Assembly (NCBI RefSeq): GCF_013393905.1
Contig: NZ_CP040272.1
Coordinates: 2,360,900-2,392,899, forward strand
DNA: 32,000 bases
From: Nostoc sp. C052
GTDB taxonomy: Bacteria; Cyanobacteriota; Cyanobacteriia; Cyanobacteriales; Nostocaceae
Reading direction: 5' to 3'
Below are positions 3,747 to 30,793 of the stretch, one piece after another; the stretch's first letter is position 1; the number at the start of each line of letters is the position of its first letter. Position numbers and translations under genes: made by a program. The notes under the pieces are model-generated. The model saw nothing but the letters and a program-made list of their open reading frames with translations. It was not told the DNA's origin and ran no database searches.

Positions 3747-6317
3747 GTGACACTCCCCAACCCTGGCAGCGTCTTGGCTACATTAACTGAACTAACTCAA
3801 GTTAATCGTACTCACGCCCTACTGCGTCGCGTTAAAGACTTATCTGTTAACGAATTTGTTTGCTTACTTGACTTTATAACTGCTGAGTTCCAGCAATTTC
3901 TGAGAGCTATTGAACTAATCAATAATGAAGCTCTAGAAACTATGTTGGAGAAAGTATTAGAAGCCATCACACTCAAAATCGGTCAAATTCTCCAAGCAGA
4001 ACATACAGCTATTTTTTTAGTTGACTATGACAAAGGTCAATTGTGGTCGAAAGTTCCCCAAGATAATACTCAAAAATTCTTAGAAATTCGTACTCCCATT
4101 ACAGTGGGTATCCCTGGTCATGTTGCGAGTACAGGTCAATATCTCAATATATCTGAAACTTATACTCATCCGCTATTTAGCCCAGAGCTTGAAAAACAAA
4201 TGGGCTACAAAATACATAACATTTTATGTATGCCCGTTATTAGTAGTAAAAATAAGACTGTAGCGGTAGTACAACTAGCTAATAAAACCGGGAATGTTCC
4301 GTTTAATCATGATGATGAAGAACGTTTTCGAGACTTTGCCGCCTCTATTGGTATTATTCTAGAAAGCTGCCAATCTTTTTATGTTGCTGCTCGTAATCAA
4401 AGAGGCGCAACGGCTTTGTTACGGGCAACTCAGACACTAGGGCAAAGTCTGGATTTAGAAGCAACTTTGCAAATAGTCATGGAACAAGCCCGAATTCTCA
4501 TGCAGGCAGACCGCAGTACACTATTTTTATATCGTAAAGAGATGAGCGAACTCTGGACGAAAGTGGCAGCGGCGGCAGATGGCACAAACTTGATAGAAAT
4601 CCGCATTCCTGCTAACCGTGGCATTGCTGGATATGTAGCTTCCACTGGTGAAGCCTTAAATATTTCTGATGCTTACAAAGACCCCCGTTTTGACCCAACG
4701 ACAGATAGAAAAACTGGCTATGTAACTCGCAATATTCTGTGTTTGCCAGTATTTAATTCTGCAAATGAATTGATTGGTGTGACGCAATTAATTAATAAGC
4801 AACAAGGGAGTTTTACTGCTTCTGATGAAGAGTTTATGCGGGCTTTTAATAATCAAGCCGGAATTGCCTTAGAAAATGCTCGTCTGTTTGAAAATGTGCT
4901 ATTAGAAAAACAGTATCAAAAAGATATTTTACAAAGTCTGTCAGATGCCGTGATTTCTACAGATATGGCAGGACAAATTGTCACGATTAATGATGCAGCA
5001 TTGGAGTTGCTGGGTTGTCCGATAGGAGACGCCAATAGCAAGAATAACAAGCTTTTGTGGGAACAAAATTTGATTGGCCGCCTAGTTTGGGAAGTTGTGC
5101 CGATTGAAAATCTCCAAATGCGACTAGAAGATAGTCTCAAAACTGGAGCTAAACATTATGTGCCAGAGCAAAGTTTGATGGTGGGACTTTATCAAGTGCT
5201 GAGTGCTGTTAGCAGTAGCGGGACTCATCACTCAATTTTAGCAGTACGCGATCGCACTAACCCCGATATTTTCATTCCCTGGAATCAACCCCTCATTCCC
5301 CAATCTGAGTTTCTCACTGCTGATGAGGTACAAACATTAGAGCGCAGTACTAATCTCACTGTGAATCCCCTGACTAACCCAGAAGGCGGTGTACGCGGTG
5401 GTTTGGTGGTGTTGGAAGACATCAGTCAGGAAAAACGGATGAAAACTACCATGTCTCGCTACCTAACGCCTCATGTCGCTGAACAAGTGATGGCGCTGGG
5501 AGAAGATGCTTTAATGGTAGGCGAGCGCAAGGAAGTAACCATCTTATTTTCTGATATCCGGGGCTACACAACACTGACGGAAAATCTTGGTGCAGCTGAA
5601 GTGGTATTGCTGCTAAATCAGTATTTTGAAACGATGGTAGAGGCGGTTTTTAACCACGAAGGTACTCTCGATAAATTTATTGGAGATGCCTTAATGGCAG
5701 TATTTGGTGCGCCGTTACCACTTACAGAAAATCATGCTTGGAGGGCTGTGCAGTCAGCGTTAGATATGCGACAACGCTTGGAGGAATTTAACCAGCGGCG
5801 AATTATCCAGGCGCAACCACAAATTCGTATTGGCATTGGGATTAGTTCTGGGGATGTGGTTTCGGGTAATATTGGTTCCCGCAAACGAATGGATTACACC
5901 GTCATTGGAGATGGTGTAAATTTGAGTTCGCGCTTAGAGGCAGTAACAAAGGATTATGGCTGTGATATTATTTTAAGCGAATTTACTTACCAATTGTGCA
6001 GCGATCGCATTTGGGTGCGCCAATTAGATAAAATTCGAGTCAAAGGGAAACACCAGGCAGTTAATATCTACGAGTTAATTGGCGATCGCACTACTCCCCT
6101 AGATGCCAACACTCAAGAGTTTTTGTTTCATTATCATACTGGACGCGCTGCTTATTTATCGCGCAACTTCTCACAAGCGATCGCCTGTTTTGAAGCCGCC
6201 AAATGCATCCAACCCCAAGACCAAGCTGTTGATATCCACCTAGAACGTGCGAGGAATTATCAACAAACTCCGCCTCCAGAGTCCTGGGATGGTGTCTGGA
6301 CAATGCTTTCTAAGTAG
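3747..6317 (+). CDS. cyaB1: Class III adenylate cyclase with GAF-GAF-PAS-cyclase-TPR-like architecture (CyaB1 type)
   Basis: Two GAF-like blocks (...GIPGHVASTGQYLNISETY... and ...GIAGYVASTGEALNISDAY...), then a PAS-like segment, then cyclase motifs (ILFSDIRGYTTLTE, KFIGDALMAVFGAP, GDGVNLSSRLE). At 856 aa it is similar in size and layout to Anabaena CyaB1. GTG start. Confidence 0.85.
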   Translation: MTLPNPGSVLATLTELTQVNRTHALLRRVKDLSVNEFVCLLDFITAEFQQFLRAIELINNEALETMLEKVLEAITLKIGQILQAEHTAIFLVDYDKGQLWSKVPQDNTQKFLEIRTPITVGIPGHVASTGQYLNISETYTHPLFSPELEKQMGYKIHNILCMPVISSKNKTVAVVQLANKTGNVPFNHDDEERFRDFAASIGIILESCQSFYVAARNQRGATALLRATQTLGQSLDLEATLQIVMEQARILMQADRSTLFLYRKEMSELWTKVAAAADGTNLIEIRIPANRGIAGYVASTGEALNISDAYKDPRFDPTTDRKTGYVTRNILCLPVFNSANELIGVTQLINKQQGSFTASDEEFMRAFNNQAGIALENARLFENVLLEKQYQKDILQSLSDAVISTDMAGQIVTINDAALELLGCPIGDANSKNNKLLWEQNLIGRLVWEVVPIENLQMRLEDSLKTGAKHYVPEQSLMVGLYQVLSAVSSSGTHHSILAVRDRTNPDIFIPWNQPLIPQSEFLTADEVQTLERSTNLTVNPLTNPEGGVRGGLVVLEDISQEKRMKTTMSRYLTPHVAEQVMALGEDALMVGERKEVTILFSDIRGYTTLTENLGAAEVVLLLNQYFETMVEAVFNHEGTLDKFIGDALMAVFGAPLPLTENHAWRAVQSALDMRQRLEEFNQRRIIQAQPQIRIGIGISSGDVVSGNIGSRKRMDYTVIGDGVNLSSRLEAVTKDYGCDIILSEFTYQLCSDRIWVRQLDKIRVKGKHQAVNIYELIGDRTTPLDANTQEFLFHYHTGRAAYLSRNFSQAIACFEAAKCIQPQDQAVDIHLERARNYQQTPPPESWDGVWTMLSK

Positions 6318-6318
6318 T

Positions 6319-6345
6319 CATTAGTCATTCTCCTTCTGACTAATG
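6319..6345. terminator. Weak hairpin between convergent genes (cattagtc - 11 nt - gactaatg)
   Basis: An 8-bp perfect stem seen directly, located 2 nt after the cyaB1 stop and upstream of the minus-strand gene end. There is no strong U-tract. Confidence 0.3.
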
Positions 6346-6367
6346 CCCAATTCTCTGCGTCTCTGGC

Positions 6368-6643
6368 TCAACCTTTAGCCTCTCCGTGGTCATCTTGAAA
6401 CGGATCTTCGCCAATCCCTAGCTCTTTTTTTGAGCGTTTCAACTGTTTCCATAGATCCTTTATTTGTTCGTAAGCTGCACCTGGAGGTAGTTTTCCACCT
6501 GTTTCTAAGTTGCAAATGTAGCTGACCCGTTGAGCAAATTCCTGTAAATTTGCATTAAAAACCAAGTTTTCCGGCTTTACTTGACCGTAGTAGCGACCAC
6601 GAGGGAAGAGAAAATCATCCTTGTTCACTATTTTATTCTCCAA
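6368..6643 (-). CDS. Small conserved hypothetical protein (91 aa)
   Basis: Clean ORF convergent with cyaB1, with plausible composition and no overlap with other genes. A small minus-strand gene sits at this position in the related Anabaena locus as far as I recall. Confidence 0.55.
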   Translation of the reverse strand: MENKIVNKDDFLFPRGRYYGQVKPENLVFNANLQEFAQRVSYICNLETGGKLPPGAAYEQIKDLWKQLKRSKKELGIGEDPFQDDHGEAKG

Positions 6644-7311
6644 TTTCTTTAGTTCTCCTTCTATTTGAATCTCTGAAGCTGAATCACTAGCTAACCTAAT
6701 TTTTACTTTTGTGAGACTGGGGTAGACCCATCACCCAAATCCTTTTCCTAATTGTTGATGCAGGAGTTGGTCAATTTAGATTTTGAGACTAGAGGATAAA
6801 GCTTAAAATATTTTTGTTGTAAATGTTACAAAAAAGCTTCTGCTAAAGTAACCAGAGGGAATATTTGACTTTCCTCCCAGTTGTCAATTTATCTCATCTT
6901 AATTTATGAAGTTCAAACTGTAATCAACTTCAGTCGAAACAATTAGATACATACTAAAACATACCCAAATATCTTAGCAAATTATATTTGCAACAATAAG
7001 TACATTTTATTTTATAAGCTTACTTAAGTAAATATACTATGTAGAAAAGCAAACTGTCCTCTGTTAAAAGTTAGAGATTTAGTTCTGAATCTCTGGCAAC
7101 TAGCTACTGAAGAATCACCAAAAAGAGGGCATTAAACATTGGGCATTGGAAAGAGGCACAGGAGTAGGGTGCGGAGGGGAAAATTCTTCTTCCTTGCTGC
7201 CTGCTCCCTCATTAAAATAATCACCAATGGCTAATAGTTAATAACTAAAGATAAAATGGTGAAGCCTCAAAGGACAACTTTTGTCCATCGCCTAAAACTT
7301 TACCTGCCACC

Positions 7312-14902: not shown

Positions 14903-16171
14903 ATGGCTTATGAGATGAAAAAACAAAGAGCGATCGCAGTTGATTTGTTCGCTGGCGCGGGTGGTATGACTCTTGGCTTTGAGCAAGCTGGTTTTGATGT
15001 GCTAGCATCTGTGGAAATTGACCCGATCCACTGTGCAACACATGAGTTTAACTTCCCTTATTGCTCAGTGTTATGTAAAAGTGTTGTGGATACAACCGGG
15101 GAAGAAATTAGGAGTCGGTCTGAGATTGGCGATCGCGAGATTGATGTGGTAATTTGTGGCTCACCATGTCAAGGATTTTCCCTAATTGGTAAACGAGCTA
15201 TCGATGACCCCCGAAATTCTTTGGTGTTTCACTTTCATCGGCTGGTTTTTGAGCTAAAACCGAAATTCTTTGTGATGGAAAATGTTCGAGGGATCACAGT
15301 TGGCGAACATAAACAAATCCTCCAAACCTTAATTAGCGAGTTTAGAATTCACGGCTATCAAGTAGAAGAAAATTACCAAATTCTCAACGCTGCAAATTAC
15401 GGAGTACCACAATCTCGTGAGAGATTATTTCTGATAGGTGCGAGGGAAGATGTAGAGTTACCAAGATACCCTCAGCCGATTACTAAACAAGCGCTAATAA
15501 ATAATTCAAATTCTAAAAGAATATCTGACATTCCATCGAGTCCTACAGTCTGGGATGCAATTAGAGATTTACCTGAAATAGAAAAATATCCTGAATTATT
15601 AACAAGAGATTGGGTTGTAGCAGAATACGAAAAGCCTAGTAAATATGGTCTTGTACTTCGTGGTCTTAAGTGCCTAGATGATGATTATTCTTACAAACGG
15701 GAATATGACTTGCGAATACTTTCATCAAGTTTAAGAACAAAACATTCTGCGGAAACTATTAAACGTTTTCAGGATACTCAACAAGGCGAGAGAGAAAAAA
15801 TTAGTCGTTTTCATAAGCTACATCCTGCTAGTGTCTGCAATACTTTAAGGGCCGGAACAGACAGGTATAGGGGTTCTTTCACATCTCCAAGACCGATTCA
15901 TCCATCTACGCCGAGGTGTATCACCGTCAGGGAAGCAGCAAGATTGCATTCTTACCCAGATTGGTTTAGATTTCATATAACTAAATGGCACGGATTTCGG
16001 CAAGTTGGTAACTCTGTACCACCGCTACTAGCAAAGGCTGTGGCATCAGAAATTATTCGCAGTTTGAATATTTCGCCTTTTAAGCCGAGTTCGCGATACA
16101 AGTTGGGAGAGGAAAAACTATTACAATTTAATATGTCGCAAGCGGCACAATATTATCAGTGTGACTGTTAA
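14903..16171 (+). CDS. DNA (cytosine-5)-methyltransferase
   Basis: Canonical m5C methyltransferase motifs in order: I DLFAGAGG, IV GSPCQGFS, VI ENV, VIII QSRERLF, IX TVREAARLHSYPDWF, X GNSVPP. A variable AT-rich target-recognition region lies between VIII and IX. Confidence 0.92.
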   Translation: MAYEMKKQRAIAVDLFAGAGGMTLGFEQAGFDVLASVEIDPIHCATHEFNFPYCSVLCKSVVDTTGEEIRSRSEIGDREIDVVICGSPCQGFSLIGKRAIDDPRNSLVFHFHRLVFELKPKFFVMENVRGITVGEHKQILQTLISEFRIHGYQVEENYQILNAANYGVPQSRERLFLIGAREDVELPRYPQPITKQALINNSNSKRISDIPSSPTVWDAIRDLPEIEKYPELLTRDWVVAEYEKPSKYGLVLRGLKCLDDDYSYKREYDLRILSSSLRTKHSAETIKRFQDTQQGEREKISRFHKLHPASVCNTLRAGTDRYRGSFTSPRPIHPSTPRCITVREAARLHSYPDWFRFHITKWHGFRQVGNSVPPLLAKAVASEIIRSLNISPFKPSSRYKLGEEKLLQFNMSQAAQYYQCDC

Positions 16172-18143: not shown

Positions 18144-18386
18144 AACCACTAAAAGAAAAATCTCGGAAAATAAACCTATATTCTCAGGATTCCCTCTTGA
18201 CAGCCTTAAGTAACATTAAGATGCAAAATCTCAGCTAATCTGAGCTAAAATATTTAGTATAAAGATAGTCTTTACACAGATTTTTACAAAAATTATATTT
18301 TCCCTATATCAACATCAAAAACTAGTGTTTTTGTGCTTGCCAAATTAACAGAATTAATATTAATCAGTTTACTTTCAATTTTCAAT

Positions 18387-19052
18387 ATGAAGTTTTATCG
18401 AGATCATGCTTGGCCATCGACGCTAGAAGAAGCCATAGTTATCCAAGAAGCGCTGCGAGATCGAGTAATTACTGAGGATCAACTGCAAGAACCTATCCAG
18501 TATGTTGCTGGAGTCGATATGGGTTTTGAAGCTGATGGAACCATTAGCCGTGCAGCTGTCGCAGTATTGAGTTTTCCTGATTTGCAAGTCATTGAGACAA
18601 GCCTAGCACACCGTCCTACCACCTTTCCTTATGTTCCTGGATTCCTCTCATTTCGGGAAATTCCAGCCGTTCTCGATGCTCTAGAAAAGATTAAAACAAC
18701 ACCTGATATCATCCTGTGTGATGGTCAGGGAATTGCTCATCCCCGCAGATTAGGTATAGCTAGCCATTTAGGTTTACTTATAGATATACCAACAATTGGT
18801 GTCGCTAAGTCCAGGTTGTTAGGGAAACATGAAGAATTGGCAGAAACCAAAGGCAGTACGCAACCACTGATATATGAGGGTGAAACCGTTGGGGCTGTTT
18901 TGCGATCGCGCACAGCAGTAAAACCTCTATACATCTCCAGTGGCCATCGAATTAGCTTACCGACAGCCATTGACTATGTATTACGCTGCACGCCAAAATA
19001 TCGGCTACCAGAAACTACACGCATTGCTGATAAATTAGCGTCGGACAGATAA
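18387..19052 (+). CDS. nfi: Endonuclease V (deoxyinosine 3' endonuclease)
   Basis: Motifs VAGVDMGF, PYVPGFLSFREIP and DGQGIAHPRRLGIASHLG. The ATG at 18387 gives a typical length of about 221 aa. The track ORF starts at an upstream non-ATG codon (18333). Confidence 0.9.
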   Translation: MKFYRDHAWPSTLEEAIVIQEALRDRVITEDQLQEPIQYVAGVDMGFEADGTISRAAVAVLSFPDLQVIETSLAHRPTTFPYVPGFLSFREIPAVLDALEKIKTTPDIILCDGQGIAHPRRLGIASHLGLLIDIPTIGVAKSRLLGKHEELAETKGSTQPLIYEGETVGAVLRSRTAVKPLYISSGHRISLPTAIDYVLRCTPKYRLPETTRIADKLASDR

Positions 19053-19159: not shown

Positions 19160-19708
19160 ATGAACGCACTAACTTTACAGTGGCACGATGCAGGTCAAGA
19201 TAAAACTCAGAACATTTACGAGCAACAGCCAAGTCAAAATCCTGGCACTGTCCGCATCGGTCGCGACCCCCTCCGGTGCGATATTGTTCTGAGTCACCCT
19301 ACTGTCTCTGGACTGCACGTTGAAATCTTTTTTCATCACCAGCAACAGCGCTTTTATATTAGGAATTTGCGATCGCAAAATCCCCCTGTTGTCGATGGAA
19401 GGCAATTAGTCCAAGGTGAAATGCCTTTAACTGAGGGCACTAGTATTACTTTGGGACAAATAAAACTCAATGTTACTAACGTTTCCACGGGTAGTATTCC
19501 AGCAACAATTTTGCTGCCACCCCATCCACCAGTAAACATCGGACATCACCACCATCCACTAACACCCCCTGCACCACCGCCAGGAGTTTATGGCTTAGAA
19601 TGCCCCAAATGTCATAAAGTTTCCCCAGGAGAGAATCTACAAATTGGCTGTCATTGGTGTGGGACATCTTTAGCTGCGGCTGTGAGTGTTTTGGTAGCAA
19701 GGAATTAG
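19160..19708 (+). CDS. FHA-domain protein with Pro/His-rich linker and C-terminal CxxC...CxxC zinc ribbon
   Basis: FHA core: VRIGRDPLRCDIVLSHPTVSGLHVEIFF...IRNLRSQNPPVVDGRQL...ITLGQIKL. Linker HHHHPLTPPAPPPG. Zinc ribbon CPKCHK...CHWCG. Confidence 0.8.
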   Translation: MNALTLQWHDAGQDKTQNIYEQQPSQNPGTVRIGRDPLRCDIVLSHPTVSGLHVEIFFHHQQQRFYIRNLRSQNPPVVDGRQLVQGEMPLTEGTSITLGQIKLNVTNVSTGSIPATILLPPHPPVNIGHHHHPLTPPAPPPGVYGLECPKCHKVSPGENLQIGCHWCGTSLAAAVSVLVARN

Positions 19709-19741: not shown

Positions 19742-21697
19742 ATGACAAATGAACAAATCCAATTAAGTTGGGAAGAACCAGCGACAGGTGAACGGCGAGA
19801 ACCAAGGTTAAATATACCGATCGCTTTTGGTCGAGAATTCGCTCGTTTACCTGCTGAACTTAAGGGAGTGCGCGTTTCTCGGATGCTGCTTAACAGTAAC
19901 GAAGTTTCTCGCTACCATGCCCTAATTGAGTGGGAACAAGACCATCTAGTGGTGATTGATCAAGGCAGTGTTAACGGTGTCTATGTCAATGGTCAACCAC
20001 AAACGCGGAGTGTCTTGGCTAATGGCGATACGTTGCAAATTGGCCCCTATTTAATAACGGTGACATTTGTTGCTAACGCCTCTGCACCAGATACTAGCCC
20101 CCCTTCAACGATTCGCTTTAATGCAAATACCAATCTTCCAGACCCCAGCTTGCCTGTAGTCCAGCCGTTAACGCCTTTGACAAGTAATTTCCCGCCATTG
20201 GCATTTCAAGCACAAAAGGTTGCTGTGCAAGCACTTCATGCTACGGGATTGCCAGTAGATGAATCTGATTATTTAGCGATCGGGGCGGGATTGGGTAGCT
20301 TTTTATGGGCTGATTTGCTGCGAATTAGTGGTGTACGTGCTGACAAAATTGTAGCTTTGGGATTAGAGGCAGAACCTTATGCCCGTTACAAGCGCCTCTG
20401 TTTGAATTCGCAAATTCCCTTATATGAAAGACTGCGTTCTAATTCTGACTCTTGTCCTGATAATATTTGGGGTTGGCCTAGTTATGCCTTGCGTGAGGCT
20501 TGGGGAGACTTAACTAAGGGACAGATAAATTCAGCATTCAAGTATTTATGGCAAGTCTTTGCCGAACCAACATTTGCTGAAACTTATACTCCCCGTGCTG
20601 GTAACGTCTTTGATTCCATAGATAGGGAGACAAAGCGTATTGGCTGGAATCAAATTTATCGCTATGGGCGAGTTAGAGGAATTCGGAAAACTGATGATGG
20701 CAGATATTGCGTAGCCTATTCTCGCGGCCCAGGAGATTATGCTTTTTTAGTTAGTCGTTATTTACATTTAGCTACTGGGTATCCAGCAATTCAGTTTCTC
20801 CCAGATTTGCAAGCTTATAGGGAAAAATATCAAGACTTTAAATCTGTGGTCAATGCTTATGAAGCCCACGATCATGTTTATGAACAACTAGAGCAACATG
20901 GTGGTACGGTATTGATTCGGGGGCGGGGAATTGTGGCTTCGCGGATTGTGCAGCGGATTTATGAAGCCAGAAAACGAAATCGGAATATTGCAGTTTTGCA
21001 TTTAATGCGATCGCCTAAACCCCAAGGTAACAAATTTCAAAGAGCCACGCGCCTAGTCAAAAATCATTACGAATTTCAACCCTTTAACTGGCCGAAAGCC
21101 TGTTGGGGCGGCGAACTCCGGGCAATGTTAGAAAAAGCTAGTCCCGATGAACGCAAACGTTTACTAGCAGACTGGGGTGGAACAACCACCGCCGACCGCC
21201 AAGACTGGCAGCAAATTACCGCCCAAGGGTTAAGCGAAGGTTGGTATCAAATTACCTTCGGTGAGGTGCTGGATGTAGAACGAGATGCCCAAAACCGGAC
21301 TATTACCCGTATCAGAGAGCAAAGCTTTGGGGAAATGAAATTGCTCGCTGACTTTATTGTTGACGCTACTGGACTGGATGCCAAGGTAGATACCAATCCC
21401 CTACTAGCAGATTTGGTGAAACATTACAATCTCCCAGTGAATCATCTGGGGCGATTGACTGTAGCGAACAATTTTGAATTGATAGAAATGCGTAGTGATA
21501 GAGGTCAAATGTATGCTGCGGGAGCTATTACTTTAGGTGGCCCTTATGCAGCAGTTGATAGTTTTTTGGGCTTGCAATACGCCGCATTAGTCGCCGTTGA
21601 TGGACTCGCCGCCGCCCGTGCTACTGGAGTGCAAAAGTTGAATGTTGTAAGTTCCTTTAGTCAGTGGTTGAAGTGGGTGTTAAATCAGTCACCTTAG
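19742..21697 (+). CDS. FHA domain fused to a two-dinucleotide-binding-domain (FAD/NAD(P)-type) flavoprotein-like region
   Basis: N-terminal FHA: IAFGRE...VSRYHALIEWEQDHLVVIDQGSVNGVYVNGQ...LQIGPYLITV. Pro-rich linker. Rossmann-like DYLAIGAGLGSF, a second GxGxxA (IRGRGIVASRIV), a DATG motif (FIVDATGLD), and a C-terminal MYAAGAITLGGPYAAVDSF. Confidence 0.75.
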   Translation: MTNEQIQLSWEEPATGERREPRLNIPIAFGREFARLPAELKGVRVSRMLLNSNEVSRYHALIEWEQDHLVVIDQGSVNGVYVNGQPQTRSVLANGDTLQIGPYLITVTFVANASAPDTSPPSTIRFNANTNLPDPSLPVVQPLTPLTSNFPPLAFQAQKVAVQALHATGLPVDESDYLAIGAGLGSFLWADLLRISGVRADKIVALGLEAEPYARYKRLCLNSQIPLYERLRSNSDSCPDNIWGWPSYALREAWGDLTKGQINSAFKYLWQVFAEPTFAETYTPRAGNVFDSIDRETKRIGWNQIYRYGRVRGIRKTDDGRYCVAYSRGPGDYAFLVSRYLHLATGYPAIQFLPDLQAYREKYQDFKSVVNAYEAHDHVYEQLEQHGGTVLIRGRGIVASRIVQRIYEARKRNRNIAVLHLMRSPKPQGNKFQRATRLVKNHYEFQPFNWPKACWGGELRAMLEKASPDERKRLLADWGGTTTADRQDWQQITAQGLSEGWYQITFGEVLDVERDAQNRTITRIREQSFGEMKLLADFIVDATGLDAKVDTNPLLADLVKHYNLPVNHLGRLTVANNFELIEMRSDRGQMYAAGAITLGGPYAAVDSFLGLQYAALVAVDGLAAARATGVQKLNVVSSFSQWLKWVLNQSP

Positions 21698-21760: not shown

Positions 21761-21918
21761 AACATTGAGGATAAAAGGTGCAACATTGAGGATAAAAGGT
21801 GCAACTTCGAGGATAAAAGACGCAACTTCGAGGATAAAAGGCTCAACTTCGAGGATAAAAGACGCAACTTCGAGGATAAAAGGTGCAACGTCGAAGATAA
21901 AAGGCGCAACGTTGAGGT
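21761..21918. repeat. 21-bp tandem repeat, 7 full units plus a partial unit (consensus aacttcgaggataaaaggtgc)
   Basis: Units start at 21761, 21782, 21803, 21824, 21845, 21866 and 21887, with a partial unit from 21908. Units 1 and 2 are identical to each other, and units 3 and 5 are identical to each other. Variation is confined to positions 4-6, 11 (unit 7 only) and 17-19 of the unit. Confidence 0.9.
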
Positions 21919-21933
21919 TCTGAGGTTTAATTG

Positions 21934-21962
21934 GCGATGTCTACGACGGGCTACACCTACGC
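21934..21962. repeat. Second (inverted) copy of the dispersed 29-nt repeat
   Basis: gcgatgtctacgacgggctacacctacgc is the reverse complement of 16931-16959 with one mismatch. Confidence 0.8.
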
Positions 21963-22120
21963 AGAATTCTTACTCTCTGATATTATGAATAAAATCGGCG
22001 GTTAGAAACTTCATCCCGGCTGTATTTTTTATAATTTTTTCTGTTATTTGCTCACTATTAACTATTTAGAGACTATAGACTGAGAACCATAAGTAAAATA
22101 TCGTGTATTTTGGCAGACTT

Positions 22121-22498
22121 ATGGAGCCAGTATCACTGACAGCAGCTGCGATCGCAACTTTAGTCATCACCAAAGCCTTTGAAAAAACTGGTGAAATCAT
22201 CGGCGAAAAGGCTTGGAACGAAGGCGAAAAGTTGTTAGTTCTGCTGAAACGCAAGGAACCTAGCACGGCGAAGGTTATTGAACAGTCTAAAACACAACCT
22301 TTAGATTATGGTCAAGCTTATCTCATTGGGCAGCAAGTAGAGGAAGCGGCAAAAAAAGACCCTGAAATTGCTCAAGCTGTGGAAGCTGTAGCTAATGAGG
22401 CACAACCTCAACTGACGAACACTATTATTGAAAATTGGCAGGGAATAAATATCAAAGGTGGAACTAATACCATTTCTGGTAACACCTTAAATTTCTGA
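22121..22498 (+). CDS. Small helical protein (125 aa from ATG), apparently the detached N-terminal module of the downstream STAND NTPase
   Basis: Starts with a hydrophobic helix (MEPVSLTAAAIATLVITKAF) followed by a charged helical region, and ends in a G/N/T-rich segment (NTIIENWQGINIKGGTNTISGNTLNF). It is in the same reading frame as 22505..24886, separated only by TGA-CTA-AAG. Confidence 0.6.
   Translation: MEPVSLTAAAIATLVITKAFEKTGEIIGEKAWNEGEKLLVLLKRKEPSTAKVIEQSKTQPLDYGQAYLIGQQVEEAAKKDPEIAQAVEAVANEAQPQLTNTIIENWQGINIKGGTNTISGNTLNF
22496..22498 (+). other. Single in-frame TGA separating the N-terminal module from the NB-ARC ORF
   Basis: 22505 minus 22103 is 402, which is 134 x 3, so the two ORFs share a frame. 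The sequence reads aat ttc TGA cta aag ttg ccc. No ATG lies between the stop and the P-loop. Confidence 0.9.
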
Positions 22499-22504
22499 CT
22501 AAAG

Positions 22505-24886
22505 TTGCCCGAAAGGGAATCGATAGTCTCTACTGAAATACCGCAAAATTTGCCCCTGACTGGGGTACTGGAGTTTGTCGGGCGTGAAGAGGAATTACAA
22601 AATCTTCACCAACTTTTGCAGGATAATAAACAAGTTGCGATCGTAGGTATGGGTGGAGTAGGCAAAACTGAACTCGCTACCCAATACGCCAAACAGCATT
22701 TGCAGAATTATCAAGGTGGGGTTTGCTGGTTATCTGCACAGGGAATTGATGTCGAAATTCAGATTTTCAGATTTTTTGAATTAAAATTCAACAGAATTGT
22801 ACCGGACGATTGGGAATTAGCAGATAGACTGAAATTCTGCTGGCAAAATTGGCAACAAGGTGAAGTACTGCTGGTGTTTGATAATGTCACTGACTACAAA
22901 ACACAGGTACAGCGTAATCTACCCTCAGAATCACCCCGATTTAAAGTATTGCTGACAACGCGTGAGAAATTTGACAGAACTTTGCCGCAATTACCTTTGG
23001 GTGTTCTCAAACCATTGGCGGCGATGAAATTATTAAAATCGCTGGTTGATAGAGAACGACTCAAAAGCGAACCTTGGGCTGCGAGAAGAATTTGTAAATC
23101 CTTGGGATATTTGCCTTTGGCGTTAGAGTTAGTGGGGCGATATCTGGATACAATGCCAGATTTGTCTCTGGAGACACTGCTGAAGCGGCTAGAGAAAAAG
23201 CGACTCGAACACGAAGCAGTCGCCAAAGCTAACCCATTGATGCGTTATGAATACGGTGTTGCCGAAGCTTTTGCATTGAGTTGGGAACAGTTGGATGAAA
23301 ATGCACAAAAATTAGGCTGTTTGCTGAGTTTGTATGCCTTAGCTGACATTCCGTTATCTTTTGAGGCGATAGAAGATGAGGAAGAACAAGAACTCAACGA
23401 GAAAGCTATAGCTGAGTTGCGAAAACTGCATTTAGTACAATGGCAAAGTAAAGGAATATATCGTTTACATCCACTGATTCGGCAATTTTTCCAAATGAAG
23501 TTGGATGAGTCAAGTGAGGCGGATAAGGTGAAAACAAATTTTACAGCGCAGATGGTAGAGGTGGCAAAGCAAATTTCTCAACAGCTTAACCGTGAAGAGA
23601 TTCTCAACGTCACTCCCTTTATCTCCCACATTGCAGAAATTGCAACCCATTTATCCCAATATCTCAGCGACGAGGATTTAATTGCGCCTTTCACAGGCTT
23701 AGGCTGGTTTTATCAAGGCCAAGGGCTTTATCAGCAGGCAGAACCTTGGTTGCAGCAGTGTAAAAAAGTCACTGAAAATCGTTTTGGTTTAGAACATCCC
23801 CATGTCGCCGCTAGCCTAAACAATCTTGCTGGACTCTATGAATATATAGGACACTACAGCGAAGCCGAGCCTCTGTATCTGCAAGCTTTGGAACTGAACA
23901 AATGCTTAATGGGAGAAAATCATCCTGATGTCGCCACTGCCCTGAACAATTTAGCAGCACTTTATCAGTCTACAGGACGCTACAGCGAAGCCGAACCCCT
24001 TTTTGAACAAGCTTTGGAACTAAGAAAACACCTACTGGGAGACAACCATCCCCATGTCGCCACTAGCCTGAACAATCTCGCAGAACTATACCGTTCTACA
24101 GGACGCTACAGCAAAGCTGAACCCCTCCATCACCAAGCTTTGGAACTGAGAAAACGCCTGCTGGGAGAAAATCATCCTGATGTCGCCAATAGCTTGAACA
24201 ATTTAGCAAGACTCTACATAGATACAGGACACTACAGCAAAGCCAAACTCTTGTTTGAACAAGCTTTAGAACTGACAAAACGCCTGCTGGGAGAAAATCA
24301 TCCCGATGTCGCCAATAGCTTGAATAATCTGGCAGGACTCTATAATACTACAGGACGCTACAGCGAAGCCGAACCCCTTCTTGAACAAGCTTTGGAACTA
24401 AGAAAACACCTACTGGGAGACAACCATCCCGATGTCGCCACTAGCCTGAACAATCTCGCAGAACTATACCGTTCTACAGGACGCTACAGCGAAGCTGAAC
24501 CCCTGTATCACCAAGCTTTGGAACTGAGAAGATACTTACTGGGAGACAACCATCCCGATGTCGCCGCTAGCCTGAATAATCTCGCAACACTCTATCAGTC
24601 TACAGGACGCTACAGTGAAGCCGAACAAATACATCTGCAAGCTTTGGAACTTTGGAAAAGCTTGCTGGGAGACAACCATCCTGATGTTGCCACTAGCTTG
24701 AACAATCTCGCAGGACTCTACTGTTCTACAAGACGCTTTAGTGAAGGCAAACCCTTATTTGAGCAAGCTTTGGCAATTTGTGAACGTACTTTAGGTGTAG
24801 ATCATCCCAATACAATGACGGTTCGGGGAAATTATGCAAGATTTTTAACCCACATTCCGCACCCGGAACTGTCACAAAAGAAATAG
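22505..24886 (+). CDS. STAND NTPase, NB-ARC domain plus about 9 kinesin-light-chain-type TPRs (bacterial NLR-like); the present 3' end is created by an IS insertion
   Basis: Walker A VAIVGMGGVGKTELA, Walker B VLLVFDNV, LLTTRE, and the GLPLA-type motif LGYLPLALELVGRYL. These are followed by 42-aa TPR units (HPDVATSLNNLAxLYxxTGRYSEAEPLxxQALELRKRLLG). The last 12 codons (THIPHPELSQKK) read into the IS terminal repeat. The native end is reconstructed at 26965. Confidence 0.88.
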   Translation: MPERESIVSTEIPQNLPLTGVLEFVGREEELQNLHQLLQDNKQVAIVGMGGVGKTELATQYAKQHLQNYQGGVCWLSAQGIDVEIQIFRFFELKFNRIVPDDWELADRLKFCWQNWQQGEVLLVFDNVTDYKTQVQRNLPSESPRFKVLLTTREKFDRTLPQLPLGVLKPLAAMKLLKSLVDRERLKSEPWAARRICKSLGYLPLALELVGRYLDTMPDLSLETLLKRLEKKRLEHEAVAKANPLMRYEYGVAEAFALSWEQLDENAQKLGCLLSLYALADIPLSFEAIEDEEEQELNEKAIAELRKLHLVQWQSKGIYRLHPLIRQFFQMKLDESSEADKVKTNFTAQMVEVAKQISQQLNREEILNVTPFISHIAEIATHLSQYLSDEDLIAPFTGLGWFYQGQGLYQQAEPWLQQCKKVTENRFGLEHPHVAASLNNLAGLYEYIGHYSEAEPLYLQALELNKCLMGENHPDVATALNNLAALYQSTGRYSEAEPLFEQALELRKHLLGDNHPHVATSLNNLAELYRSTGRYSKAEPLHHQALELRKRLLGENHPDVANSLNNLARLYIDTGHYSKAKLLFEQALELTKRLLGENHPDVANSLNNLAGLYNTTGRYSEAEPLLEQALELRKHLLGDNHPDVATSLNNLAELYRSTGRYSEAEPLYHQALELRRYLLGDNHPDVAASLNNLATLYQSTGRYSEAEQIHLQALELWKSLLGDNHPDVATSLNNLAGLYCSTRRFSEGKPLFEQALAICERTLGVDHPNTMTVRGNYARFLTHIPHPELSQKK
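23686..24830 (+). repeat. Coding tandem array of 126-bp TPR units with very high inter-unit nucleotide identity
   Basis: As an example, 23971-24150 and 24349-24528 (offset 378 bp, which is 3 units) differ at only about five positions by my count. Confidence 0.85.
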
Positions 24887-26942
24887 CAAAGAATTGTGGG
24901 GTTAGTTTTTGATTTAAAACCAAAATTGGAGAGATGGAAATTTAAAAATCAAACCAGAGTTTGCGAAAATAAAGAATCGGTATAAAAAATCCTGCACTAA
25001 AACGTAGAGTTACTAAACATAGAGTGAGTAACTCTTGCAAAAATTAGTAAAAGTAAAGCTTAATTAAAATAATAATCAAACTAATAAATAGTAGCGACGA
25101 CAAGTACTAGGAAAAAATTGTAATATCCATAATCTTTCATCAGAGAGGTTTGATATTTGTGAAACACTATTAACAATTAATAAATGAATACCTTGGAAAC
25201 ATTGAAATATCCACCTGAGAGTGGGGCGGTCTGTTGGTTTACCTAATTGATTTTTTATTTCCTGGTTTTGAGCTAATAAAATTCCACGTAACTGTCGTTG
25301 TCCTAAAGTATAAACCAACAAACATAACCCCATAATCATTGATAAAGCTTCAATGCGCTCCGGTGACTTAATAAATATGCTATCTGTTAAGAATAAAGGG
25401 TCTTTTAAGAAAGCAAAGCCTCTTTCACATGATTGTTGAGCTTTATATTCCTTAATCATGTCAGTGTGGCTTAATTGGGATTCATCAATAATATTAGTTG
25501 CTAAAATAAATTTTCCCGAAGCGCGATTTTCAAGTTCAATTGCTGCTTTATCTTGCTCTAATTGCGCGGATATCTGATAGTAATATTTCCAGTCATTCTG
25601 ATTGTTGTTTTTGTTTTTACCTTGAGGTTTTAACTGTTTCTTAGATATTTTAATTTCAGCCAAACAATGATATTTTAATTGCTCTGATAGATGTAATGCA
25701 GCTTTCTTGGCATCTCGATGACAAGCAAATTCTTCATTACATAATTTTGTGAGCTTTTGATGAGCATTTATTTGGGCTTGCTGAACACGGCGCATCAGCT
25801 GTTTAGAATCTGCTTTTTTCCGTTCTTGGCTTTCAACTATCAGCCATCTTTGCTCGATCCCGGCATAGTTACTAGACTTGACTATATATGAATAACCTGT
25901 TATTTCACTTTGGATTAAATCTTTGGAGTCTATTCCTAATAGTATTTGCTTGGCTAACCCCACTGTCAATGGAACTCTGCATAACCATTTGAGGCTTTTC
26001 ATCAAATTCAGGTTTTCGGCACTATATAATGCGCTGTCTGCTACCATTAACGCATCTATATCAATATTTTCTCGAAAATTCACGAGAGTTTTCGCAAAGG
26101 TTTTCGTATCTGATTGATTTCCTGACGCTGCTTTTAAAAAGATGGGAATATCCCCATCACTGCTACAAATTAACTCTAGAATAAATTGTTTTAAGTCTGG
26201 TCTATGATCTCTTGAATAACCATAAGTTATATTTATTGGTTGTGGTGCTAACTCTAGGAGCTTATCTTCATTTTCTGTGGGAGCATTTCTTTCAAAGGCT
26301 ACTTCGGGTAAACCAGTTTTATATTCTCCGTGCAGATGCAATGAAGAAGAATCTAAGTGTAGCGATGATAAATCTACTCCATATTTTTTTACTGCTGCTA
26401 ACGCTATTAAAGTGAAGATTCCACTTAATCCTTTTAAATATAATTGGTCTAATACTCTTCCTAGTCTGTCGTCATTTAAATGTTCTGGTAATACTCCTTC
26501 TCCTATCAAGTGTTCACAGGCATAGCTATCCATATATTTAGGAAACATATATAATGTTCCAGATACAAACCCTAACCCGTTTAGTATCATTGCTTTGACC
26601 GCCTGACCCGCACTCACTTTAGACTGCGGGTGCTGTCCAAGTATTTTATTTATTTGGTCTACCAACCCTATTTCATCAATAATTCCTGCTACTATCCCCA
26701 GGTGATTTAAATTTTTTACTTCAATGCTCAAAGGCGAATTCATTTTCACACTATATCCCATCAACTATTTTTAGCTTTTCATGATGGAAGCTTATAGAGT
26801 GCTAATTTTATTTATTTTTTGACTTTTACCCTGATTCTGGCTATTAACTTTACTTCTGGGTTTTTCTTGTCTCAATTTCTACCAGTAGTTTTAATTTACT
26901 TACTGCTTTCTCTGTGTGCCAGTTTTAGGTGCGGAATGTGGG
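24849..26942 (-). mobile_element. IS4-superfamily / IS1634-like insertion sequence (2094 bp) inserted into the 3' end of the STAND gene
   Basis: Perfect 15-bp terminal inverted repeats: cccacattccgcacc at 24849-24863 and ggtgcggaatgtggg at 26928-26942, extendable to about 28 bp with mismatches. A 6-bp direct repeat TTTTAA lies at 24843-24848 and 26943-26948. One 562-aa transposase ORF lies inside. Confidence 0.88.
25076..26761 (-). CDS. IS1634/IS4-family DDE transposase
   Basis: 561 aa. The N-terminus (LNHLGIVAGIIDEIGLVDQINKILG...KVSAGQAVKAMILNGLGF) is typical of IS1634-group transposases. The ORF fills the element bounded by the inverted repeats. Confidence 0.85.
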   Translation of the reverse strand: MGYSVKMNSPLSIEVKNLNHLGIVAGIIDEIGLVDQINKILGQHPQSKVSAGQAVKAMILNGLGFVSGTLYMFPKYMDSYACEHLIGEGVLPEHLNDDRLGRVLDQLYLKGLSGIFTLIALAAVKKYGVDLSSLHLDSSSLHLHGEYKTGLPEVAFERNAPTENEDKLLELAPQPINITYGYSRDHRPDLKQFILELICSSDGDIPIFLKAASGNQSDTKTFAKTLVNFRENIDIDALMVADSALYSAENLNLMKSLKWLCRVPLTVGLAKQILLGIDSKDLIQSEITGYSYIVKSSNYAGIEQRWLIVESQERKKADSKQLMRRVQQAQINAHQKLTKLCNEEFACHRDAKKAALHLSEQLKYHCLAEIKISKKQLKPQGKNKNNNQNDWKYYYQISAQLEQDKAAIELENRASGKFILATNIIDESQLSHTDMIKEYKAQQSCERGFAFLKDPLFLTDSIFIKSPERIEALSMIMGLCLLVYTLGQRQLRGILLAQNQEIKNQLGKPTDRPTLRWIFQCFQGIHLLIVNSVSQISNLSDERLWILQFFPSTCRRYYLLV

Positions 26943-27303: not shown

Positions 27304-27367
27304 GCGATCGCTCCTTCTTACCTCTTCCTCCGTGTCCTCTGCGCCTCTGCGGTTCGATTCTCACGCT
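27304..27367. repeat. Dispersed HIP1-headed repeat, copy B, forming the 5' boundary of the truncated STAND paralogue
   Basis: gcgatcgctccttcttacctcttcctccgtgtcctctgcgcctctgcggttcgattctcacgct. The first 12 codons of track ORF 27332.. are encoded by this repeat. Confidence 0.75.
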
Positions 27368-28753
27368 TATATATTGTCATTAGCGTTAGAGTTAGTGAGA
27401 GGATATCTGGATAAAATGCCAGATGTATCTCTGGAAACATTGCTGACGCGGCTAGAGAAGAAACGAGTGGAACAAGAACCAGTAGTCAATGCTAATTCAT
27501 TGATGCCTTCTGAATATGGTGTAGCTGAAGCTTTTGAAGTGAGTTGGGAAAAATTAGATGAAAATGCCCAAAGCTTTGGCTGTTTGCTAAGTTTGTGTGC
27601 CTTAGCTGACATTCCCTTATCTATTGAGACTATAGAAGATGACAAAAAACAAGAACTCAACAAGAAAGCCATAGCCGATTTACTGGAATTACATTTGCTA
27701 CAACAGAAAAGTCAAGGAATTTATCGTCTCAATCCAGAGATTCGGCAACTTTTCCAAATGAAGTTGGATAAGTCAAGTGAGGCGGATGAAGCAAAAACTA
27801 AATTTGCCGCCATGATGCTAGAGGTAGCAAAGTTAATTCCGCAACAGCCTAACCCTGAAGATATTCTCAACCTAACTCCACATATCCCGCACATTACAGA
27901 AGTTGCAACCCACCTATCCCAGTATGTCGGCGATGAAAATCTCATTACTCTGTTTACCAAATTAGCCTGGTTTTATCAAAGTCAAGGACTTTATCGGCAA
28001 GCAGAACCTTGGTTGCAACAGTGTGTAGAACTGACTCAAAATCGTCTTGGGTTAGAACATATTGATGTCGCCACTAGCCTCAGCAATTTAGCAGGAGTCT
28101 ACGAATCTACGGGACGCTACAACGAAGCCGAACCCTTGCTTGAACAAGCTTTAGAACTGAGAAAACGCTTGCTAGGAGAAGAACATATTGATTTCGCCAC
28201 TAGCCTCAGCTATTTAGCATTAATCTACGAATCTACAGGACGCTATACTAAAGCCGAACTTTTGTATCAGCAAGCTTTAGAACTGTGGAAACGCCTCGTG
28301 GGAGAAGAACATCCCCATGTTGCCACGAGTCTGAACAATTTAGCAGCATTGTACTGTTATACAAGACGCTACAGCGAAGCCGAACCCTTGTTTGAGCAAG
28401 CTTTAAAATTGAGAAAACGTCTGCTGGGAGAAGAACATATTGATGTTGCCACTAGCTTAAATAATTTAGCACAACTCTACGAATCTACTGGACGCCACAC
28501 CAAAGCCGAACCCTTGTATCAGAAAGCTTTAGAACTGAGTAAGCGCCTGCTGGGAGACAATCATCCTGATGTTGCCATTAGCATGAATAATCTCGCCGCA
28601 CTCTACCGTTATGCAAGACGCTATAGGAAAGCCAAACCCTTATTTGAGAAAGCTTTGAAAATTTGTGAACGAACTTTAGGTGTAAGTCATCCTACAACTA
28701 TGACAGTTCGGGAAAATTATACAAGCTGTTTAAGAGAAGCAGCATATCACTAG
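27332..28753 (+). CDS. 5'-truncated paralogue of the STAND protein: it lacks the P-loop/NB-ARC N-half and retains the winged-helix/linker region plus about 6 TPRs; possibly a pseudogene
   Basis: Homology to 22505..24886 begins at about 27373 (LALELVRGYLDKMPDVSLETLL versus LALELVGRYLDTMPDLSLETLL, which is aa 204 of the full copy) and continues to the stop. The GTG start and the first residues come from repeat copy B. There is no Walker A. Confidence 0.6.
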   Translation: MSSAPLRFDSHAYILSLALELVRGYLDKMPDVSLETLLTRLEKKRVEQEPVVNANSLMPSEYGVAEAFEVSWEKLDENAQSFGCLLSLCALADIPLSIETIEDDKKQELNKKAIADLLELHLLQQKSQGIYRLNPEIRQLFQMKLDKSSEADEAKTKFAAMMLEVAKLIPQQPNPEDILNLTPHIPHITEVATHLSQYVGDENLITLFTKLAWFYQSQGLYRQAEPWLQQCVELTQNRLGLEHIDVATSLSNLAGVYESTGRYNEAEPLLEQALELRKRLLGEEHIDFATSLSYLALIYESTGRYTKAELLYQQALELWKRLVGEEHPHVATSLNNLAALYCYTRRYSEAEPLFEQALKLRKRLLGEEHIDVATSLNNLAQLYESTGRHTKAEPLYQKALELSKRLLGDNHPDVAISMNNLAALYRYARRYRKAKPLFEKALKICERTLGVSHPTTMTVRENYTSCLREAAYH

Positions 28754-29620: not shown

Positions 29621-30793
29621 CAGGGTGGTTTCATACAACGAGAGAAAAATAATAATGATTTATAGAGGGTGGAGAAAAATGGATAACTAACAAGTATGAA
29701 TCTCGTCGAACAATTGCAGCAAGTCCCAGACTATAGACACATCCGAGGACGAAGGCATGAATTATGGTTGGTATTATTGCTCATATTGCTCGGAGCAATG
29801 ACTGGGTATTGGGGCTACCGGCCACTGGAAGATTTTACCAAAGTACACAGACGGAGCTTAATTGAGCTGTTAAACCTAGATGAAACAATGAAGTTTCCAT
29901 CCTATTCAACGTTCCGACGAGTACTCAAAACAGTAGATTTTCAGCCATTCACCGACTTATTTAATAATTGGGCGTTAGTTTTTGTTCCACCGATGCCAGG
30001 AGAAAGATTGGCAATTGACGGAAAAGGCATTCGTTGCACAGTCACAGATTACAGTCAGTCCTACCAAAACTTTATCAGTACAGTATCGGTTTATAGTCAT
30101 GAACGAGGTATTGTACTCAGGATGCAACCAATGTCCAACAAAAAAATTAGTGAAGTAGCGATCGTAAAACAATTAATCTTCGAGTTTTGTGGTCAACAAG
30201 TCGTTTTTACACTTGATGCTCTACACTGCCAAAAAAAACTGTATCACTGATTGTCAATAGTGGCAATGACTACCTGATTGGATTAAAAGAAAATCAACCG
30301 ACACTCTACAAAATGGCTCAAACCGAGTTACAACAAGATGTTCCACTTAGCAGTGCCACAACTGTAGAGAATGTTCATTCTCGGCTAGTTCAACGTCAGT
30401 GCAAGGTTTTTGCTGCCCCCGAACAAATTCAAAAAAAATGGTCTGGACTCAAAACTTTTATTGTTGTCGAGCGTCAGGGTGAGCGCAATGGTCGGCCATT
30501 TTACGAGCGTCAATTCTATATCTGTAGTCAATATCTCGAAGCTCAACAGTTACTTGCCGACATTCAAGGGCATTGGGGAATCGAAAATCGACTTCATTGG
30601 GTAAGAGATGTGACATTCAAAGAAGACTTTCCACTACGGCGTGGTGGCAATGCCCCTGTGAATTGGTCTATCTTACACAACTTTTTTATTACGATCGCAC
30701 GCAAACTCGGTTTCCGAACTATTCCTCAAGCACAACGCGCACTCTCCAACCAACTCGATAGAGTTTTTTCTTTCTTTGTATGAAACCACCCTG
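29621..30793 (+). mobile_element. ISAs1-family insertion sequence (1173 bp)
   Basis: Perfect 18-bp terminal inverted repeats: cagggtggtttcatacaa at 29621-29638 and ttgtatgaaaccaccctg at 30776-30793. It is flanked by a 19-bp direct repeat, agggtacaaaggagacaag, at 29602-29620 and 30794-30812. Confidence 0.85.
29696..30783 (+). pseudogene. ISAs1-family (H-repeat-associated) transposase split into two frames at an A8 run
   Basis: ORF 29696..30250 (...DALHCQKK-LYH*) continues in the -1 frame as TVSLIVNSGNDYLIGLKENQPTLY..., joining ORF 30313..30783. The switch point is ccAAAAAAAAct at 30231-30238. Confidence 0.75.

Follow-up and report, generated by a model that had tools for sequence, protein, structure and literature searches.

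A Bell/BASS7 effector gene and an NLR-like NB-ARC-TPR gene of Nostoc sp. C052 share one reading frame across a conserved UGA-CUA stop, a candidate for programmed readthrough

The 32,000 nucleotides analysed here, called the window throughout, correspond to positions 2,360,900 to 2,392,899 of the forward strand of contig NZ_CP040272.1 from the cyanobacterium Nostoc sp. C052. The subject of this work is a pair of open reading frames (ORFs) on the plus strand, a small Bell-domain protein with a C-terminal BASS7 motif (ORF1) and a large STAND NTPase resembling NOD-like receptors (NLRs; ORF2), which are divided by a single in-frame stop codon. ORF1 can start with GTG at 22103 or ATG at 22121 and ends with TGA at 22496-22498, and from 22499 on this frame contains no stop until the TAG at 24884-24886. 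As all homologues of ORF1 begin with MEPVSL (alignment A1), ATG 22121 was taken as the true start. The resulting protein of 125 amino acids (22121..22498, stop included) exactly matched QLE40653.1 / FD723_09405 of Nostoc sp. C052 in the protein collection. The stop is followed by an in-frame linker of 25 codons (22499..22573, plus strand), leading from the TGA to FVGRE, the start of the NB-ARC NTPase domain (22574..23209, plus strand; PF00931, E-value 2.1e-15, 57.1 bits versus a cut-off of 23.5). The Walker A motif GMGGVGKT (22646-22669), positioned within NB-ARC 49 codons past the TGA, is intact. A sensor region of tetratricopeptide repeats (TPRs) with nine TPR_10/TPR_12 units (23627..24886, plus strand; TPR_10 E-value 4e-123 in nine stretches, TPR_12 E-value 1.5e-127) extends to the TAG stop. 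With an NB-ARC domain above the Pfam threshold and a C-terminal array of nine TPR_10 repeats, ORF2 was classified as an NLR-like STAND NTPase. Promoter-like or terminator-like sites were looked for in the interval between ORF1 and ORF2, and none was seen.

An initial annotation, made from the letters of the DNA, had placed both ORFs in one frame with TGA-CTA-AAG between them, had noticed only TTG and no ATG ahead of the P-loop of the NTPase, and had described NB-ARC followed by nine TPRs. The coordinates and the Pfam models bore this out: TGA-CTA-AAG is the sole separator between ORF1 and TTG 22505, and the only in-frame start candidates before the P-loop are TTG 22505 and TTG 22550, both located in the linker. 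For the fused protein a length of about 926 residues had been proposed, with an N-terminal helical module, NB-ARC and TPRs. The order of domains held, the N-terminal module being a Bell domain plus a BASS7 motif (see below), and the length of the would-be product has to be corrected to 921 amino acids (125 + 1 + 795) counted from ATG 22121.

ORF1 was found 97% identical to its orthologue at locus L007, RCJ33357.1 of Nostoc punctiforme NIES-2108, which is the cyanobacterial (Nostoc) example of a Bell-domain protein given by Dyrka et al. (2020; bioRxiv 10.1101/2020.01.06.895854). Bell was proposed there as a cell-death execution domain and an analogue of fungal HeLo. ORF1 displays the features of this family, namely an alpha-helical domain of about 100 amino acids, a conserved hydrophobic N-terminal helix and a total length below 200 amino acids. 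Its Bell domain (22121..22420, plus strand) is predicted as a helical bundle with the hydrophobic N-terminal helix MEPVSLTAAAIATLVITKAFEKTGE, the N-terminal residues being nearly invariant in alignment A1. The AlphaFold2 model, based on 33 homologues, contains helices at residues 6-16, 19-22, 29-45, 47-56, 63-79 and 81-106 with a mean predicted local distance difference test score (pLDDT) of 70, and the BASS7 region is disordered in it (pLDDT <50). A Pfam search of ORF1 gave no family. The final 24 residues, IIENWQGINIKGGTNTISGNTLNF (22424..22495, plus strand), agree with the bass_07 rows in Table S2 of Dyrka et al. (2020) and represent the sole copy of this amyloid-signalling motif at the locus. 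In the same study bass_07 is exemplified by Calothrix AKG20974.1 with PTIINENWQGINIKGGTNTINNNTFNF and its partner NLR AKG24489.1 with ENWHGINIKGGKNEIKGNTFIF. By sequence comparison, ORF1 is a member of the published Bell family and carries the published BASS7 motif at its C-terminus.

A search for ORF1 homologues in 5.8 billion proteins gave 225 matches, of which 120 were listed; all 120 measured 87-163 amino acids, with identities of 49-100%. When 1.84 billion cluster representatives were searched with a profile, 465 relatives were found. Among the best 150 of these, which were inspected, just three exceeded 217 amino acids, all of other architectures, and no protein was found in which a sense codon fuses Bell domain and motif to the linker and NB-ARC. 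At the genomic level 80 loci, designated by L numbers, were fetched using tblastn, a method blind to the stop codon, and 78 of them contained a full-length ORF1. These ORF1 copies ended with TGA in 67, TAA in 8 and TAG in 3 loci. In 57 of the 78 loci the terminal TGA was followed by a stop-free continuation in the same frame into the conserved FVGRE start of NB-ARC. Clustering at 80% identity divided the TGA-ending ORF1s into 15 groups. The NLR ORFs that follow in frame at the same TGA loci served as a control; they ended with TAA in 25, TAG in 14 and TGA in 3 cases, none of them TGA-C. A pattern scan of metagenomes, for which the stop position was left free, gave five contigs, all five with TGA and three with new motif types. 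In the window the stop stands in the leaky context UGA-CUA, preceded by UUC (22496..22501, plus strand). TGA was invariant in this class, and CTA came next in 55 of 57 loci compared to 7.6% of the leucine codons elsewhere in these genes. UGA, a C at position +4, UGA-CUA and a structure approximately 8 nucleotides (nt) downstream are recognised readthrough determinants (PMC7026636). Overall, the comparative data indicate that the TGA is an old, selectively kept stop codon. The ORF1 copies of L014, L021 and L032 were shortened by premature TAA or TAG and are probably pseudogenes; L014 and L021 keep the RNA element described below at its usual position.

The frame behind the stop was kept open as well. 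The 57 loci contained 56 distinct linker sequences with lengths of 24, 25, 26 or 28 whole codons and not a single in-frame stop; frames +1 and +2 of the linker carry stops in 57 and 52 of the loci, respectively. Reading on from the stop, 39 loci had their first in-frame ATG, GTG or TTG at codon index 17-20 and 10 loci at 23-25, and in 6 loci none was present before FVGRE. Taken together, no start occurred ahead of codon index 17 in 55 of the 57 loci. The window is an exception: its third codon past the stop is TTG, where the other loci have TCG, CCG or TCA. In five loci (L040, L052, L055, L069, L076) the first start lies past FVGRE, and their ORFs are intact with 589 to >916 codons. The candidate start TTG encoding the leucine of QNLP was found interchanged with TTA and CTC, by which the leucine is kept and the start is lost.

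Other proteins were found in frame behind the same stop. After TGA-CTA, L075 continues with an nSTAND1-WD40 protein (4415-6811, 798 codons), L079 with a divergent NB-ARC (407 codons), L072 with a PsbP-like protein (4433-5155, 240 codons), L033/L034 with an unknown protein lacking a Pfam match and containing hydrophobic and proline-rich stretches (4373-5131, 252 codons) and L078/L080 with an unknown protein of 133 codons. L077 continues after TGA-CTG with an unknown protein of 124 codons. Pfam searches with the partners in L033, L077 and L078 gave no informative match. As L075, L072 and L033/L034 have other in-frame partners, the cassette of Bell, motif and TGA-CTA is not limited to NB-ARC sensors.

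A conserved RNA element was detected 3' of the stop. In the commonest class, with 28-codon linkers, third codon positions were the most variable in ORF1 and NB-ARC, the normal pattern of coding sequence. For linker codons +1 to +17 of this class third positions were the least variable (mean entropy 0.38, 0.46 and 0.29 for the three codon positions), which indicates constraint at the nucleotide level. Alignment A2 comprises 42 junctions, among them that of L002, which belongs to the 25-codon class. Here an outer helix UGACU/AGUCA takes in the stop codon. A stem of 5 base pairs, S1 (GCCCG/CGGGU), begins 8 nt past the UGA and encloses a conserved 8-nt loop, AAYGGGAA. The helices were paired in 97.3% of cells overall versus at most 43% with a slid partner strand, and S1 was paired in 98.5%. 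Changes in S1 were CG-to-UA (4 and 8 sequences), CG-to-GC (2 sequences) and C-G-to-U-G (10 sequences). The many G-U pairs in the helices point to an RNA on the sense strand. For a candidate second stem S2, formed by GGGA of the loop with a downstream UCCC, pairing was observed in 37-41 of 41 sequences, and compensatory G-C-to-A-U changes occurred in four of them, identified by eye in A2 as L022, L042, L043 and L044. Together with S1 it would form an H-type pseudoknot with an A-rich third loop of 9 nt, a candidate with thinner support than S1. As judged by eye, L079 retains both stems despite a 1-nt insertion that shifts the codon phase, so that conservation appears to act on the RNA and not on the peptide. 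From A2 a covariance model (R1) was derived, which matched each TGA-class locus once, at the stop of ORF1 and on the sense strand. The 11 TAA/TAG loci gave no match, and no further one was obtained in 689 kb. An Rfam search of 22300-22800 returned only a chance snoRNA match on the opposite strand. Two other functions of this region were considered. A palindrome or recombination site at the DNA level is disfavoured, since the G-U pairs become A-C mismatches on the other strand and the model matches the sense strand only. The heptamer A_AAT_TTC (22489-22495), directly before the TGA, resembles a slippery site for -1 frameshifting; as judged by eye it is not kept in other loci, and the other two linker frames carry stops, so that it was regarded as a chance occurrence.

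The window itself belongs to the 25-codon class, for which the genome loci provided 15 distinct sequences. Both TGA-CTA and the common frame are intact in the window, and it carries a degenerate copy of the RNA element (22493..22543, plus strand; R1 30.2 bits, E-value 1.3e-4, versus 58-82 bits in the intact class). In the predicted fold GACUA 22497-22501 pairs with UAGUC 22524-22528 around CCC 22508-22510, a GAAA loop and GGG 22515-22517, and the minimum-free-energy fold has a z-score of -2.7.

The loci with TAA or TAG differed from the TGA class in their motif content. The canonical pairing of one motif in the effector and one in the NLR was not found in the window and was found in the TAA/TAG relatives L057, L064, L068, L070, L071 and L074. 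Between the TGA and the P-loop of the window, a stretch of 49 residues, no second BASS7 copy was detected (Smith-Waterman score 12, p-value about 0.99). In 8 of 11 TAA/TAG loci the N-terminus of the downstream NLR repeats the C-terminal motif of ORF1, with p-values of at most 0.005 in seven loci and about 0.04 in L037 and L038. In L070 the pair consists of TIENWKGINIKGGNSTIN and TTENWNGINIKGGNPVIN, L071 and L074 being alike, and L057, L064 and L068 have a KLAEKIG-type motif in common. In all 11 loci 71-100 residues precede the P-loop or, for L071, where no P-loop was found, fill the 100-residue stretch examined. The NLR is encoded in another frame than ORF1 in 10 of the 11 loci, L074 having both in the same frame. 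As the NLR repeats the motif, has an extended N-terminus and mostly lies in a separate frame, the TAA/TAG loci were regarded as canonical two-gene amyloid-signalling pairs. In the TGA-class loci no NLR-side repeat of the motif was found (p-value at least 0.13), and those with NB-ARC have just 49-55 residues ahead of the P-loop. With the single motif copy sitting directly before the stop, a sensor of the TGA class would gain the motif only by readthrough.

The conserved part of the locus forms a contiguous "head" made up of leader, ORF1, TGA, linker and P-loop (22050..22680, plus strand), recognised by its nucleotide identity with non-syntenic loci. Compared to these, the window showed 85-99% identity over approximately 22121-22620, 58-83% just upstream, 73-76% just downstream and about 50-60% from 22721 on. 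The ratio of nonsynonymous to synonymous substitution rates (dN/dS) was about 0.1 for ORF1 at a dS of 0.04-0.5, and 0.18-0.30 for NB-ARC at a saturated dS of 1.3-2.3. By this measure both ORF1 and NB-ARC are under purifying selection. Since dS is saturated in NB-ARC and low in ORF1, the head seems to have been exchanged or homogenised among very different sensors. The head is nearly identical between the window and the non-syntenic loci L005, L013, L017 and L029, whose NB-ARCs are saturated at synonymous sites, which points to exchange of a cassette or to gene conversion, the breakpoint lying close to Walker A. The syntenic locus L002 has 91-99% identity with the window over approximately 21821-22620 and 82-89% from 23421 on, and just 50-73% in the NB-ARC core (22621-23420). 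This looks like a mosaic or a hypervariable NTPase segment, unlike the usual variation of the repeat region.

We consider programmed UGA readthrough the probable, though by no means certain, explanation of this arrangement: termination would release a free Bell-BASS7 executioner, and rare readthrough would add a Bell-BASS7-NB-ARC-TPR sensor sharing the single motif copy. The initial annotation had listed a real split or readthrough arrangement setting the ratio of module to sensor among its three explanations, and the TGA-CTA context, the open frame, the RNA structure and the single motif are in agreement with it. We infer the following course. A single mRNA would bear both ORFs. The majority of ribosomes would stop at UUC-UGA-CUA and release the 125-residue Bell-BASS7 protein, presumably a dormant executioner that attacks membranes and whose tail forms amyloid. 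A minority would decode the UGA, most likely as tryptophan via a near-cognate tRNA, aided in most relatives by the hairpin, possibly a pseudoknot, 8 nt downstream. Having entered the NB-ARC-TPR frame, these ribosomes would produce the sensor of 921 amino acids, in Nostoc sp. C052 with the junction peptide GGTNTISGNTLNF-X-LK, X being expected to be tryptophan. Recognition of a trigger by the TPR array would lead to oligomerisation of NB-ARC and to clustering of the BASS7 segments. By analogy with BASS systems, HET-S/NWD2 and Bab/Agp, the oligomerised sensor would nucleate an amyloid fold, which would template the abundant free Bell-BASS7 and activate its putative membrane-damaging Bell domains. 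The leakiness of the stop would set the ratio of sensor to executioner, and the motifs of both would always match, because both are read from the same DNA copy. In terms of function, the locus would be a Bell/BASS7-NLR cell-death system, probably acting against phages or by abortive infection.

Several observations weigh against this explanation, and part of them is better accommodated by two separately translated genes of one operon, the NLR starting at an internal TTG or GTG (TTG 22505 or 22550 in the window), possibly by termination-reinitiation. We regard such an operon as the main rival, possible but less likely. In gene-caller annotations the two genes are 75 nt apart; the callers begin the NLR 75 nt past the stop, with the N-termini MPLSGVVEFVGRE or VVEFVGRE. 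These N-termini come from a protein search with the linker and the N-terminus of NB-ARC, which returned 13 short fragments and is not comprehensive. Many loci carry GTG directly before FVGRE, the QNL codon (22550-22552 in the window) is TTG in about 70% of loci versus 28% of the leucine codons elsewhere, and the window's own TTG 6 nt past the stop could permit coupled re-initiation. The linker is largely conserved at the nucleotide level, so that the stop-free linkers within one class are partly inherited. The 25-codon class lacks 9 nt compared to the main class, including the 3' strand of S1, and within this subclass no covariation and only weak hairpins were found. The pseudoknot stem S2 is backed by few compensatory changes. 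Furthermore, the readthrough contexts reviewed in PMC7026636 stem mostly from eukaryotes and their viruses, the evidence for readthrough is comparative throughout, and the relationship of the Bell fold to HeLo or Bab was not confirmed, since Foldseek of the ORF1 model versus PDB gave no significant match (best E-value 1.5) and the ORF1 profile, searched against the sequences in PDB, gave chance coiled-coil matches only. In an operon of two independent genes the RNA structure would serve as an element of translational coupling or regulation, or as a processing site, instead of stimulating readthrough. The motif-less NLR would communicate with Bell-BASS7 by different means, or the effector would be served in trans by another NLR that bears BASS7 and is encoded at a distant place in the genome; published BASS7 pairs may indeed be distant, e.g., 1725 bp in Calothrix 336/3 (Dyrka et al., 2020). 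However, independent translation leaves unexplained why the frame is shared, why linker indels comprise whole codons, why TGA is never replaced by TAA or TAG and why CTA is fixed. It is also at odds with the first start lying past FVGRE in the five intact loci, the start-abolishing swaps of TTG with TTA and CTC, the diverse partner domains all in frame after the stop, and the lack of the NLR-side motif in the TGA class only. Orthologues consisting throughout of two genes with starts of their own, named in the initial annotation as the picture that would speak against readthrough, were found in part: the stop was always present, a conserved start codon for each gene was not. An internal secondary start producing a head-less NLR may coexist with programmed readthrough.

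Two further explanations concern the nature of the stop itself. A UGA inside or adjoining a 3' hairpin is the general layout of bacterial selenocysteine insertion sequence (SECIS) elements, and the conserved hairpin directly 3' of the in-frame UGA, with the UGA in its lower helix, resembles this layout, so that decoding as selenocysteine or another specially decoded residue was considered. We judge it very improbable: neither cysteine nor any other sense codon occurs at the UGA position in the 78 loci and the protein matches examined, and the UGA sits between an amyloid motif and a linker and not at a redox site. Known bacterial SECIS elements have a GU-containing apical loop, whereas the loop AAYGGGAA is not of this type and appears to be paired with the downstream UCCC. 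The Rfam search at the junction gave nothing in this direction, and a published survey mentions, among cyanobacteria, an orphan selD in Prochlorococcus only and does not mention Nostoc (PMC5029168). Still less credible is a decaying or artefactual gene, that is, a once-fused Bell-NLR interrupted by a recent nonsense mutation or by a sequencing or assembly error. All-in-one Bell-NLR architectures have been reported (Dyrka et al., 2020), and insertion sequence (IS) elements and a truncated paralogue lie close by. Nevertheless, the same TGA was present in 66 independent assemblies and five metagenome contigs, ORF1 and NB-ARC are under purifying selection, and no sense-codon fusion occurred among the protein matches examined. 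Both a very recent nonsense mutation and an assembly error had been offered in the initial annotation, and both are excluded by the conservation of the same TGA in every locus of the class and by the listed ORF1 homologues, which all stand alone at about 125 amino acids.

The neighbourhood expected from the initial annotation, with an IS insertion, a truncated paralogue and a second IS, was recovered as well. Between the NLR and the truncated paralogue an IS4-type transposase with DUF4277 and DDE_Tnp_1 is encoded on the minus strand (25076-26764). The truncated NLR paralogue (27332-28753, plus strand) lacks head and P-loop; its part at 27374-27958 corresponds to NLR residues 205-399 at 70% identity and is followed by six TPR_10 units. 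A second transposase-associated ORF is located at 29696-30247. Directly upstream of the Bell gene two FHA-domain proteins are encoded (19160-19705, 19742-21694), and farther upstream endonuclease V (18333-19049), a C5 DNA methylase (14903-16168) and a housekeeping block with lpxC, an lpxA-like gene, lpxB and BamA. A scan for tRNA genes within the window gave none.

The Bell domain, BASS7 and the pairing with NLRs are already published, and on the present comparison the leaky-stop arrangement appears to be new. The terms "readthrough" and "stop codon" occur zero times in Dyrka et al. (2020), and in the full-text literature on readthrough in Bell/NLR systems, in cyanobacteria and in bacteria generally we found no prior report of such an arrangement. 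A screen for paired motifs would miss the TGA class, because its motif is present on one protein only. Whether widespread cyanobacterial loci indeed use a virus-like readthrough signal, with one motif copy for both partners, leakiness setting their ratio and a head-plus-leaky-stop cassette exchanged among sensors, appears to us evenly balanced. Programmed stop readthrough is well established for viruses and eukaryotes but known from very few bacterial cellular genes. If the proposal is true, UGA-CUA with a covarying structure in dozens of Nostocales genomes would represent a clear case of bacterial recoding. It would explain why many Bell proteins with a C-terminal BASS motif are found beside motif-less NLRs and offer a simple answer to motif matching and stoichiometry of sensor and effector, and the leakiness might in turn be altered when infection affects translation termination. 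The N-termini of the NLR genes of the TGA class are probably misannotated in public genomes.

Known systems share different parts of this arrangement. Among viral readthrough signals, the gag-pol pseudoknot of murine leukaemia virus lies 8 nt past the stop, alphaviruses and Colorado tick fever virus use UGA-C or UGA-CUA with 3' stem-loops, and the coat/A1 gene of Q-beta contains a readthrough UGA (PMC7026636). With these signals the loci described here have in common the UGA, the C at +4 and CUA and, in the 28-codon class, the spacer of about 8 nt, a stable covarying stem and possibly an H-type pseudoknot; one mRNA would likewise yield a minor product with a C-terminal extension. They differ in being a bacterial chromosomal gene family with another RNA sequence, known from sequence alone, in which the extension is a STAND NTPase sensor of about 800 amino acids. 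The inferred logic of a sensor-nucleated amyloid acting on a membrane executioner with the same motif and leading to cell death resembles HET-S/NWD2 of Podospora and the antiphage system Bab/Agp of E. coli (bioRxiv 10.1101/2024.11.07.622273). Those systems, in contrast, consist of two genes with two motif copies, and neither sequence nor fold searches gave a match to them. With all-in-one Bell-NLR proteins and fungal HeLo/HeLL-NLR proteins the readthrough product would share the order of effector, nucleotide-binding oligomerisation domain and repeats. All-in-one proteins need neither an amyloid motif nor a free effector, whereas at the present loci a motif is retained between Bell and NB-ARC, and most of the protein made would be free effector. 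Closest are the published Bell/BASS-NLR pairs (Dyrka et al., 2020), with the same effector (97% identical), the same BASS7 family, an NB-ARC-TPR partner, tight collinear linkage and hosts among the Nostocales. By the published definition both proteins of such a pair must bear the motif, and they are encoded by separate genes that often overlap. The loci of the TGA class, however, combine one motif copy and an NLR free of the motif with a conserved in-frame UGA-CUA and an RNA structure, and would, if readthrough takes place, constitute a third architecture between "two genes, two motifs" and "all-in-one".

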